Below are positions 31,543-33,385 of a stretch of DNA of 64,000 nt, piece after piece. This DNA comes from Rickettsiales bacterium. Its GTDB lineage: Bacteria > Pseudomonadota > Alphaproteobacteria > Rickettsiales > JABIRX01. Within the stretch, counting starts at the first letter, position 1; each line of letters starts with the position of its first letter. The translations under genes were made by a program, and so were the position numbers. Under the pieces are notes generated by a model that saw only the letters and a list, made by a program, of their open reading frames with translations, searched no databases and had not been told where the DNA came from. The stretch spans positions 11,039 to 75,038 of the forward strand of contig JABJNB010000018.1 of the NCBI GenBank assembly GCA_018659145.1, read 5' to 3'.

Positions 31543-31586
31543 ACTTGAAGGGAGTAGAACCCCTGACCTTCTGATTCGTAGTCAGA
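31543..31586 (-). other. Partial tRNA-Arg copy (3' half; candidate att remnant)
   Basis: 44 nt, 43/44 identical to 33315..33358 (tRNA positions 28-71), in direct orientation. Weaker similarity continues past the tRNA 3' end. Confidence 0.8.
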
Positions 31587-31800
31587 GATATGATTTTTCT
31601 AACCTTTTCTCCTACTACCTCATAACAGCTAAAACCCGGGATTCTTCCATCCATTTCAGTCCATTCCGATCGATTTCAATCCACGGAGGTCCATTACTTT
31701 CACAGACATATGATGGACATGACAAGCATCTTTATAAAAGGGTTGTCCGAAAAAATATAGCCACATCACTTGTGATATTGGAATCTTAGCGCACTAAAAA

Positions 31801-33072
31801 TCAAACCTTTTGTAACGCCTTCTCAAGATCGGCAATAATATCACCAGCATCTTCAATACCAATTGAAAGCCTCACCACATCATCGCTAGCGCTTGCAAGC
31901 TGTTTTTCTGCATCGCTAAGCTGGCTATGTGTTGTGCTCGAAGGATGAATTATAAGACTTTTAGAGTCACCAACATTAGCAACATGAGAAATTAGCTCAC
32001 AAGAATCCACTAATTTTCGTCCCGCTACATCACCACCTTTAATTCCAAAGGTAAAAACTGCTCCATAGCCATTTTCTAAATATTGGTTAGCCAACTCATG
32101 GTAAGAGTTGGATTTGAGTCCTGGGTATTTGACCCATGCAACTTTATCATGCGACTCTAAAAACTGAGACACCTTTAATGCATTAGCGCAGTGCTTCTCC
32201 ATTCTAAGCGGTAGAGTCTCAAGACCTAGCATAGTTAAGAAAGCATTCATTGGCGCCATCACCGCTCCTAAATCTCTAAGACCAACAGCAATTCCTCTAA
32301 AGGTAAAAGCTAAGTTCCCACATGCTTCATGGAATTTTAAACCGTGATATGAAGGCTCTGGATTGGTAAGAAGTGGGAATTTATCATTCTGACTCCAGTC
32401 AAAATTACCGCTATCAATAAACACTCCGCCAATAGCTGAGCCATTACCAGCAAGGAATTTTGTAGTTGAGTTGATGATAATGTCGGCACCATGTTCTATT
32501 GGCTTGATTAAAACAGCAGTTGCAATGGTATTATCAACCAATAATGGGATACCATTATCATGAGCAACTTTGGCAAGGGCCTTAATATCAGCCACTGCGC
32601 CTTCAGGATTTGAAAGACTTTCGACAAATATAAATTTAGTTTTTTCGGTGATTGCTTGTTGCACTGCGTCTAAGTTTTCAACATCAACAAATTTTACATT
32701 CCAGCCATATTGTTTGAATGAATGTTTAAATTGATTAATCGATCCACCATATAGTTTTTTTGATGAGATAAATTCATCGCCAGATTGCAGCAAATTATGA
32801 AAAGCTGTCAACTGCGCTGCATGACCAGAGGCACAAGCCACGGCTCCAACACCACCCTCAACCGCTGCCATTCTTTCTTGCAAAGCTGAAATGGTTGGGT
32901 TGGTTAATCTCGAATAGATATACCCCACCTCTTTTAATGCAAAAAGATTTTCAGCATGCTCCGCGCTTTTAAAAACAAAAGAAGCTGATTGGTGTATCGG
33001 AATTTGTCTTGCCCCGGTTTCATCAGGATTATTTCCTGCATGCACACATATACTATTTAATTTCATAATCAT
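31801..33072 (-). CDS. metY: O-acetylhomoserine aminocarboxypropyltransferase (sulfhydrylase)
   Basis: Cys/Met-metabolism PLP family. PLP-Lys region INSTTKFLAGNGSAIGG. Size and termini typical of MetY. Confidence 0.85.
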   Translation of the reverse strand: MIMKLNSICVHAGNNPDETGARQIPIHQSASFVFKSAEHAENLFALKEVGYIYSRLTNPTISALQERMAAVEGGVGAVACASGHAAQLTAFHNLLQSGDEFISSKKLYGGSINQFKHSFKQYGWNVKFVDVENLDAVQQAITEKTKFIFVESLSNPEGAVADIKALAKVAHDNGIPLLVDNTIATAVLIKPIEHGADIIINSTTKFLAGNGSAIGGVFIDSGNFDWSQNDKFPLLTNPEPSYHGLKFHEACGNLAFTFRGIAVGLRDLGAVMAPMNAFLTMLGLETLPLRMEKHCANALKVSQFLESHDKVAWVKYPGLKSNSYHELANQYLENGYGAVFTFGIKGGDVAGRKLVDSCELISHVANVGDSKSLIIHPSSTTHSQLSDAEKQLASASDDVVRLSIGIEDAGDIIADLEKALQKV

Positions 33073-33308
33073 CCTTGGTTTAAATGTTAATATTCGTCGA
33101 CACAGGTTCGAAATTTTGAGTATCTAACTCTGTAGCTTATTTAGAGACTCTATTTTTTTAATTTCATCGCCATATTCTATACCCCATTCATAAATCACTT
33201 AAATATCCCAAATATCAAGCTTGTTCTCGTTGATCTAAGGTCTCACTTAATAGGAATTAGGGAGTTTTGGCCACCAGGTTGCAAATCAAGCAAAATCAGT
33301 GACTTAAG

Positions 33309-33385
33309 TGGTGCACTTGAAGGGAGTCGAACCCCTGACCTTCTGATTCGTAGTCAGACGCTCTATCCAGCTGAGCTACAAGTGC
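33309..33385 (-). tRNA. tRNA-Arg (anticodon ACG), CCA encoded
   Basis: rc folds as a cloverleaf: GCACTTG-TA-GCTC-AGCTGGATA-GAGC-G-TCTGA-CTACGAA-TCAGA-AGGTC-AGGGG-TTCGACT-CCCTT-CAAGTGC-ACCA. Confidence 0.95.

Follow-up and report, generated by a model that had tools for sequence, protein, structure and literature searches.

An integrase-less metY islet beside tRNA-Arg(ACG) in a marine Rickettsiales lineage, most likely assembled by tandem integration at the tRNA anticodon arm

The 64-kb window analysed here (the whole stretch of Rickettsiales bacterium DNA, 64,000 nucleotides) contains a 4.28-kb islet at 29028..33308, found in this lineage only, that adjoins a tRNA-Arg(ACG) gene and lacks an integrase. 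We regard it as probable that the islet was built by tyrosine integrases acting at the anticodon arm of the tRNA, with tandem accretion of two modules: module A (31587..33308), with the O-acetylhomoserine sulfhydrylase gene metY, and module B (29028..31542), with orphan genes. The 3′ part of the tRNA recurs inside the islet as a direct repeat, the three nearest lineages for which data exist carry the site empty, with about 200 nt from tRNA-Arg to serC, no integrase remains, the flanks of the tRNA and of its displaced copy have a motif in common, and phage attachment sites (attP) in viral contigs begin at the same tRNA position.

The tRNA and its partial copy are laid out as follows.

33309..33385, minus strand: intact tRNA-Arg(ACG) with encoded CCA, attL-type islet junction (ARAGORN; Rfam tRNA model, 70.2 bits)
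33315..33358, minus strand: core identity block in the tRNA, linear positions 28-71 (repeat search)
31543..31586, minus strand: second, displaced copy of tRNA positions 28-71 (one mismatch), internal attachment-site scar (44-mer search)

By both ARAGORN and Rfam this is the sole tRNA of the window. It is 77 nt long and in tRNA sense reads GCACTTG TA GCTC AGCTGGATA GAGC G TCTGA CTACGAA TCAGA in its first part, followed after TCAGA by AGGTC AGGGG TTCGACT CCCTT CAAGTGC A CCA, and its sequence is identical to that of the tRNA in the closest relative (locus L092). Positions 28-71 span the anticodon arm, the variable loop, the T arm and five bases at the start of the 3′ acceptor strand. A first-pass annotation of the window had described a second occurrence of this 44-mer in the same orientation with one mismatch, and our search bears this out: 100 dinucleotide-preserving shuffles gave no match in any, an expectation by chance of 0.00. 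The sole mismatch, 31556 (A) against 33328 (C), is a G to T change in the T-loop at linear position 58. The same annotation had the identity stopping at the anticodon stem. This is exact on the 5′ side (tRNA sense), where the likeness of the copy to the tRNA ends at position 28, the first base of the stem, but on the 3′ side a weaker, ungapped similarity that it missed runs 26 nt further (17/26, 65%; 31517..31542 against 33289..33314), the full repeat measuring 70 nt at 86% (31517..31586 against 33289..33358). At its acceptor end the fragment has A instead of G at position 72 and AGA in place of CCA. Beyond the 70-nt repeat no similarity rises above shuffled controls on either side, so that a larger segmental duplication, which the annotation had named as grounds for abandoning integration, is not seen. 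The Rfam tRNA model scores the fragment at 24 bits (E = 0.12, on 31540..31618), and its predicted fold, no more stable than shuffled sequence (z-score 0.03), gives no sign of a structural role for a fragment RNA.

The extent of the insert follows from comparison with relatives across a site whose edges are conserved.

27801..28964, minus strand: serC, phosphoserine transaminase, conserved left anchor (NCBIfam NF002841, 614 bits)
29028..29328, no strand: left end of the insert, a G+C-rich hairpin region with no tRNA-like remnant; homology to L089/L092 ends at 29027
33489..34289, plus strand: pilin-like or type II secretion pseudopilin-like gene, conserved right anchor (NCBI name: type II secretion system protein)
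34309..35403: leuB, after the pilin-like gene (TIGR00169, 503 bits)

The nearest relatives of the window, whose G+C content is about 35%, are metagenome-assembled genomes (MAGs) labelled 'Rickettsiales bacterium' by NCBI. SerC is 87% identical to that of SI075_bin127 and LeuB likewise 87%, as compared over the portion of its gene present in locus L058, and the corresponding values for BS307-5m-G18 are 73% for SerC and 81% for LeuB. Scanning of metagenomes with degenerate patterns of the pilin-like protein gave at least four loci, and these were the informative ones. The site is neighboured on the left by lipA and serC, and on the right by the pilin-like gene, leuB and a phytochelatin-synthase-like gene. 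L092 (SI075_bin127), with which metagenome contig L089 is identical, runs leuB, pilin-like gene, tRNA-Arg, serC and has 207 nt from the tRNA 3′ end to the serC start codon. In the more distant L090 the tRNA stands about 200 nt from a conserved motif upstream of serC. A spacer like that of L090 is seen in L097-L099, contigs that are consistent with an empty site but end before the tRNA, and L093 and L094 carry related serC-upstream sequence. Homology between the window and L092 proceeds through the serC promoter region to 29027, stops, and restarts at the tRNA (33309), with synteny otherwise conserved on both sides. The synteny comparison proposed in the first-pass annotation accordingly finds the unoccupied site, seen directly in L092/L089 and L090, yet what is missing there is 29028..33308 and not the bracketed 1.7 kb alone. 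The annotation's 1.7-kb insertion unit must be given up, since homology to the closest relative stops at 29027/29028 and not at 31542. From the short spacer of the relatives and the homology break at 29027, parsimony suggests that the short spacer is ancestral and that the 4.28 kb were inserted in the lineage of the window. The tRNA fragment lies mid-insert, not at the insert boundary. Neither module has homology to any relative's locus, and the outcome named beforehand as speaking against integration, this fragment in relatives together with a metY of vertical descent, is not seen.

The left edge of the insert is marked by a serC-upstream motif, TTATTGCAAAAACAC, which stands about 45 nt before the serC start in all relatives (L092-L099) and at 28990-29027 in the window, and beyond which conservation breaks off; it is probably a serC promoter or operator. 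Many related contigs break off at the tRNA-Arg or close to it, or else immediately upstream of serC (L001 1-93; L095 1-70; the 5′ ends of L093-L099). We considered these breaks as a sign of variable islands and rejected the idea because the longer contigs L097-L099 continue into the normal 200-nt spacer; the breaks may arise where related organisms share a tRNA sequence and the assembly graph becomes tangled. That relatives' contigs so often end here could also be taken to favour an assembly chimera produced by repeated tRNA sequence. To this we give practically no credence, as at least five independent metagenome assemblies from different samples (L088, L091, L100, L106 and L108) cover the stretch from the tRNA through metY and the fragment to the orphans at 99.9% identity. 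A 39-kb JGI contig also covers the arrangement, and the tRNA and fragment are invariant across all assemblies of the population (exact sequences came from JGI, ENA and Logan metagenome assemblies and the NCBI MAG, where the exact proteins of the region, MBT4921723-27, lie on a 94-kb contig). The contigs come from JGI metagenomes 3300072015, 3300004276 and 3300004278 and from ENA assemblies ERZ4201032, ERZ23491573 and ERZ27237615. These observations confirm that the arrangement is real and not an assembly artefact.

The sharp boundary at position 28 recurs in phages. Viral contigs (IMG/VR) scanned for the 20-nt anticodon arm plus variable region gave 45 loci, mostly complete tRNA genes, but 11 of the 45, on ten contigs that fall into four families with unrelated left flanks, contain only a 3′ piece of tRNA-Arg(ACG). 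These pieces start exactly at position 28 (TCTGACTACG...) and run to a correct CCA end, whereas the 27 nt before them are unrelated to the tRNA (4-7/27 positions agree). The anticodon arm is identical, and the pieces match the window tRNA at 41-46 of 50 positions in three families and at 39/50 in L132. A tyrosine integrase gene or candidate adjoins the piece in three of the four flank families (9/10 contigs). The Pfam-supported integrases all lie 100-160 nt from the piece. They are found in L122 and L129 (350 aa, 93.7 bits) and in L123 (313 aa, 95 bits), where the gene stands beside a portal gene; weaker Phage_integrase matches (27-29 bits) were obtained for a 384-aa open reading frame (ORF) of L139 and a 295-aa ORF of L116, while the co-located 384-aa ORFs of L127, L141, L142 and L148, outside the Pfam scan, are candidates by size and place. 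The fourth family, L132, gave no integrase match. One viral contig has a 119-nt terminal overlap and is therefore a circular genome, whose piece is an attP site and not a prophage junction. Integrases that act on tRNA-Arg(ACG) thus repeatedly have position 28 as the boundary of their attachment site, in agreement with the anticodon-centred class that Islander counts (PMC4383910) and with the concept of sublocations outlined in bioRxiv 10.1101/2020.11.02.365908. For this tRNA the viral contigs also supply a ready collection of attP sites and integrases (loci with piece and integrase: L122 5725-6934; L129; L123 4474-5627; L139 7298-8644; L113 and L148 are both IMGVR_UViG_3300045988_100481).

The same boundary bears on an explanation without any integrase, in which an old local duplication of the tRNA and its flank, or illegitimate recombination, produced a copy that lost its 5′ part, the genes being inserted otherwise. 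Similarity that passes 26 nt into the flank is what gene duplication would give, and the lack of integrase traces and the native-like composition of the islet (below) would suit it as well. Nevertheless we consider it quite improbable: the copy starts at the boundary seen in four independent viral families, three with an integrase gene or candidate, only one tRNA and a spacer of 200 nt are present in the relatives, the window shows no wider duplication, and the divergence is uneven, 1/44 in the core as against 9/26 beyond it.

The sequences next to the tRNA and the fragment suggest what the inserted elements may have looked like.

33256..33314, minus strand: tRNA 3′ terminus and proximal islet arm, candidate P′ arm of module A (70-nt repeat, motif)
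31455..31542, minus strand: degenerate tRNA terminus (A72, AGA for CCA) and proximal arm of module B (70-nt repeat, motif)
31587..31800, minus strand: non-coding stretch from the metY stop to the fragment, candidate P arm of module A (RTCCATT cluster)

The motif ATTAGGGAG occurs at 33256..33264, within the arm beside the tRNA, and at 31479..31487, within the arm beside the fragment, which also holds ATTAGGGAT at 31455..31463. When both strands of the window are scanned, ATTAGGGAK has three copies, all on the same strand and all in the 3′ flanks of the tRNA (44 nt beyond its end) or the fragment (49 and 73 nt beyond its pseudo-end). In tRNA sense the fragment runs into its flank as ACAAGA CTTAAACTGCTGACTCTGCT and the tRNA into its present flank as GCACCA CTTAAGTCACTGATTTTGCT; the 20 nt of flank that follow the two ends agree at 14/20 positions, for which we calculate a chance probability of about 1e-4. 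The arm at 33289..33314 resembles the fragment flank and is unlike the flanks of L089, L090 and L001, which read ...ATAA before the tRNA end. A candidate signature of such an arm and core would be, in order, ATTAGGGAK, about 25-50 nt, TTAAGT, 6 nt and ACTTGAAGGGAGT. Because of their mutual resemblance and shared ATTAGGGAK, both 3′ flanks look like homologous element arms (P′ arms) with a common candidate arm-type site. On the metY side of the fragment, in 31587..31800, which is similar to no fetched locus, three RTCCATT repeats fall at 31649..31695, that is, 3 of 23 window-wide matches inside 47 nt; this cluster may represent a P arm, with a putative function for its repeats.

These flanks argue against the simplest form of integration, in which one small metY element entered the tRNA, the fragment is the displaced native 3′ half at the island end, and the orphan stretch is a separate insertion or a fast-evolving spacer. 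Such an account, which we think unlikely, is in keeping with the geometry, with the position-28 boundary and with metY alone between the repeats, and as the spacers of relatives misalign among themselves, lost spacer homology is not decisive against it. After a single event, however, the native flank should follow a native 3′ half. What follows the fragment instead resembles the present flank of the tRNA, with ATTAGGGAK common to both and three relatives differing, and simple integration is thus a poor fit. In addition, homology with relatives resumes only at 29027, and the acceptor end and CCA of the fragment are degenerate. Of the integration footprint that the first-pass annotation recognised, the geometry stands, as does the boundary at position 28 also seen in viral contigs; its view of the fragment as simply a displaced native tRNA end does not, given the degenerate acceptor and a flank like that of the present tRNA and unlike those of the three relatives.

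Two successive integrations of related elements would account for this arrangement. The attP of each incoming element would mimic the tRNA from position 28 onward, and recombination would join the 5′ part of the bacterial tRNA to the 3′ copy of the element, so that the tRNA stays intact, while the previous 3′ part would be shifted to the far end of the element. The first element would have left module B with the orphans, and the second, entering the regenerated tRNA, would have left module A with metY. The fragment at 31543..31586 would then be the junction between the modules, beside the proximal arm of module B, which would be homologous to the arm now at the tRNA. Later deletions would have removed the integrase genes together with the outermost attachment site, the ancestral spacer of 145-200 nt and most of the remaining element DNA, and the cargo would have become fixed. 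The order of events and the deletions are what we infer from the present sequence, as is the number of events, two as opposed to one composite arrival. The whole 4.28 kb, or a larger precursor, could have arrived once, either as a composite put together in a donor or as a tandem dimer that had an attachment site within it, and have decayed afterwards. That all population assemblies hold both modules, with no intermediate, and that the internal site retains both arm-like flanks would be in line with such an arrival, and composite tandem transfer is documented (PMC5704250). The data fit stepwise accretion equally, loss of the outer attachment site and spacer is needed in either case, and we hold a single composite arrival to be a doubtful alternative.

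Several observations weigh against integration of tandem elements. The fragment differs from the tRNA at three of its six terminal positions (72-77) as compared with 1/44 in the core (hypergeometric p of about 0.004). Integration implies that these positions were once part of a working tRNA, and the excess of changes among them is therefore odd and unexplained. The phage attP pieces also keep a proper CCA end, which the fragment lacks. Searches of 28960..33310 for a second, outer tRNA fragment or for the ancestral spacer gave alignments no better than shuffles; with neither present at the left junction, tandem accretion needs an extra deletion. There is no integrase gene or pseudogene in the insert or the 64-kb window: recombinase and transposase domains are absent from all ORFs of at least 100 aa in the window, no Pfam match was obtained from the six frames of 29028..31800 at E up to 1, and tblastn with four phage integrases gave none. 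The first-pass annotation was therefore right that an integrase is absent, and the pseudogene traces it proposed to look for did not turn up. Residual phage genes, by which a prophage remnant would be recognised, were not seen either, the five islet ORFs having no PHROG match below E = 0.03. A parent element was sought without success in viral contigs, phages and plasmids: viral contigs matched neither the 30-mer core nor the flank-plus-core pattern, and in INPHARED phages and PLSDB plasmids the only matches were generic tRNA-like ones in unrelated hosts. Finally, the compositional analysis suggested earlier gave no anomaly and no sign of foreign origin for metY or the orphans. The G+C content at third codon positions (GC3) of metY is 0.292 compared with 0.271 +/- 0.045 for the window, its synonymous-codon likelihood is ordinary, and in GC3 and codon usage both metY and the orphan gene orf376 lie less than one standard deviation from the window's genes.

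The cargo of module A is a single gene.

31801..33072, minus strand: metY, coding for O-acetylhomoserine sulfhydrylase of 423 aa, sole gene in module A, in the orientation of the tRNA (PF01053, TIGR01326)

ORF and profile matches support the earlier statement that the bracketed DNA holds metY alone. The protein scores 417 bits against PF01053 (Cys_Met_Meta_PP) and 597 bits against TIGR01326 over residues 5-421, above the curated cut-off of 495, as a full-length member of that subfamily. To judge by its sequence it gives the cell direct sulfhydrylation of O-acetylhomoserine; MetY makes homocysteine or methionine from sulfide or methanethiol, as described for Pelagibacter (PMC5069961). Pelagibacter metY is preceded by a SAM-V riboswitch (PMC5069961). 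No S-adenosylmethionine (SAM) riboswitch or other Rfam family was detected upstream of metY in the window (33073-33308) or in L081, L085, L086, L101 and L103. As no terminator-like site lies between the tRNA and metY, the gene may be read through from the tRNA promoter.

Homologues of metY with 77-87% identity are numerous, close homologues numbering roughly 45, and occur in four other neighbourhoods.

metY between DPRP and hemH
metY after a metB-like gene and SelO, followed by an ABC transporter
metY between CSD and Fic, in a defence-gene region
metY after sdhCDAB, in an organism of 51% G+C

None of the four has a tRNA or tRNA fragment near metY, and homology of these loci to the window is limited to the ORF. 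In a neighbour-joining tree the window MetY is nested in a bushy clade, adjoining the sequence of L081. At an identity of at least 85%, SerC forms one cluster and MetY about twelve in the same protein collection. It is only suggestive, but the nearest kin of metY would thus seem to differ from the nearest kin of the organism. As to a metY elsewhere in the sister MAG, the two NCBI-sourced MetY homologues looked up belong to other assemblies. One could go further and see in the 1.77 kb from tRNA core through metY to fragment core a minimal cis-mobilizable element (CIME), a single-gene cassette with arm-like repeats and two almost unaltered core sites, which phages or other elements could mobilise in trans through integrases targeting tRNA-Arg that would excise it and insert it anew. 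We think this very doubtful. If true, it would help explain the differing metY neighbourhood in each related lineage examined, and the cassette would rank as an exceptionally small att-bounded carrier of a core gene of amino-acid biosynthesis in streamlined marine bacteria. The other contexts show no convincing att-like direct repeats around metY. The only pair is in L103 (the 51% G+C organism, MetY 77%), where two palindromic hairpins of 26 nt, 88% alike (5576-5601 and 7100-7125), bracket metY just after sdhB; they have no tie to the tRNA repeat and may be terminators or repetitive extragenic palindromic (REP)-like elements. The L081 contig, with its close metY homologue, encodes ankyrin-repeat proteins at 15275-16693 and 19301-21266, and a 919-aa ankyrin-repeat protein is found at 47041-49800 of the window, which hints at a eukaryote-associated lifestyle of these 'Rickettsiales bacterium' lineages.

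Module B agrees with the earlier description of the stretch left of the fragment as orphan genes and repeats: it has two orphans and a copy of a dispersed repeat.

29329..30459, plus strand: orf376, a strict orphan with no homologue but itself
30704..30967, plus strand: orf87, a small orphan ORF known from the same population only
31239..31376, no strand: small hairpin-rich repeat copy, also at 43801..43962 (85%) and 36267..36290

Among 5.8 billion clustered proteins orf376 retrieves itself alone, and a full HMMER pass over 1.84 billion representatives found only its own 52-aa fragment. Its codon usage is native-like, and a single-sequence AlphaFold2 (AF2) model is unusable (pLDDT 47). In L106 a G>T nonsense change at window position 30043 splits the frame into ORFs of 238 and 86 aa, and three more single-base differences are seen across assemblies (29400, 29427, 29632), so the gene may be dispensable or decaying. 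The N-terminus of orf87 is signal-peptide-like on direct reading, and the protein has no match in Pfam or NCBIfam and no significant one in PHROG. Just upstream of orf376, two 22-nt tandem repeats at 29198..29241 each contain the palindrome ATAG(T/G)ATATACTAT. On the minus strand from 29282 to 29253 is a strong promoter-like site, TTGGCA, 18 nt, TATAAT (11/12 sigma-70-like), the best such match of the region, directed toward serC and away from orf376. Together the palindromes and this site (29198-29282) look like an operator and promoter imported with the islet.

The hairpin-rich repeat has a 98-nt core that is 85% identical between its copies at 31.3 kb and 43.8 kb. A 43-nt module accompanies the core, before it in one copy and after it in the other, and a 24-nt inverted piece lies at 36.27 kb. 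The repeat may be a REP-like element of this genome or one resembling a miniature inverted-repeat transposable element (MITE). A speF-leader Rfam hit at 31254..31386 (18.5 bits) was rejected, being well below threshold and coinciding with this repeat. Elsewhere in the window, 4875-12601 on the minus strand encodes a type I restriction-modification system (HsdR of 1004 aa, HsdS and HsdM), with a Fic/DOC gene between hsdR and hsdS and a YgjP-like metallopeptidase gene beside it; a Fic homologue also adjoins metY in the relative L086.

In sum, the islet would represent the gain or relocation of a sulfur-assimilation gene by a small-genome, uncultured marine alphaproteobacterium through the classical tRNA route, followed by loss of every trace of the machinery, and MetY could be useful where reduced sulfur is available. 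It illustrates that a displaced tRNA fragment can sit inside an insert and need not mark its boundary, that native-like composition does not exclude insertion, and that island finders which need an integrase would miss such islets. Current understanding of tRNA-targeted integration is unchanged by it: the islet adds one more case of a familiar kind of feature, in a lineage that is poorly known.

A close parallel is provided by the tDNA islands catalogued in Islander by Hudson, Lau and Williams (PMC4383910), where the end of an island is marked by a displaced tDNA fragment and islands may stand in tandem arrays. Like these, the islet has an intact tRNA and a same-orientation 3′ copy downstream that starts from the anticodon stem, its interval is absent from relatives, the crossover belongs to the anticodon-centred class, and a tandem array is a recognised outcome. 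It differs from them in having no integrase gene, an Islander requirement, in a 1.7-kb interval far below the usual sizes, and in a fragment that lacks a proper acceptor end and CCA and is not next to the ancestral flank, homology resuming 2.5 kb on at 29027. Decayed elements of the CIME type keep att sites without an integrase and accrete (PMC5704250). Module A similarly is flanked by attL/attR-type sites with a 44-nt core and one mismatch, and the islet is without integration and transfer genes of its own, though the outer site of module B is missing. We found no evidence of a parental integrative and conjugative element (ICE) or integrative and mobilizable element (IME), of conjugation genes or of present mobility of the islet. 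Tandem accretion is the CIME pattern of ICESt1/ICESt3-related elements of Streptococcus thermophilus (PMC5704250), from which the present case departs in its host, an uncultured marine alphaproteobacterium, and in the missing outer att site. The tandem islands behind ssrA in Dehalococcoides, some without integration modules and with extra conservation beside the repeats (PMC3146451), are closely comparable in standing in tandem downstream of a single-copy small-RNA gene with direct repeats of its 3′ end between them, in the conserved repeat-adjacent sequence, in the lack of an integration module in some and in their metabolic cargo; there, however, the target is tmRNA, the repeat 20 bp, the enzyme a serine recombinase (CcrB-like) and the islands much larger. 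The attP-like pieces of the viral contigs share with the islet the 5′ boundary at position 28 and an identical anticodon arm. They differ in their adjacent tyrosine integrase gene or candidate (three of four families), in phage structural genes carried by some and in a correct CCA end; their arms have no similarity to those of the window and none carries metY.

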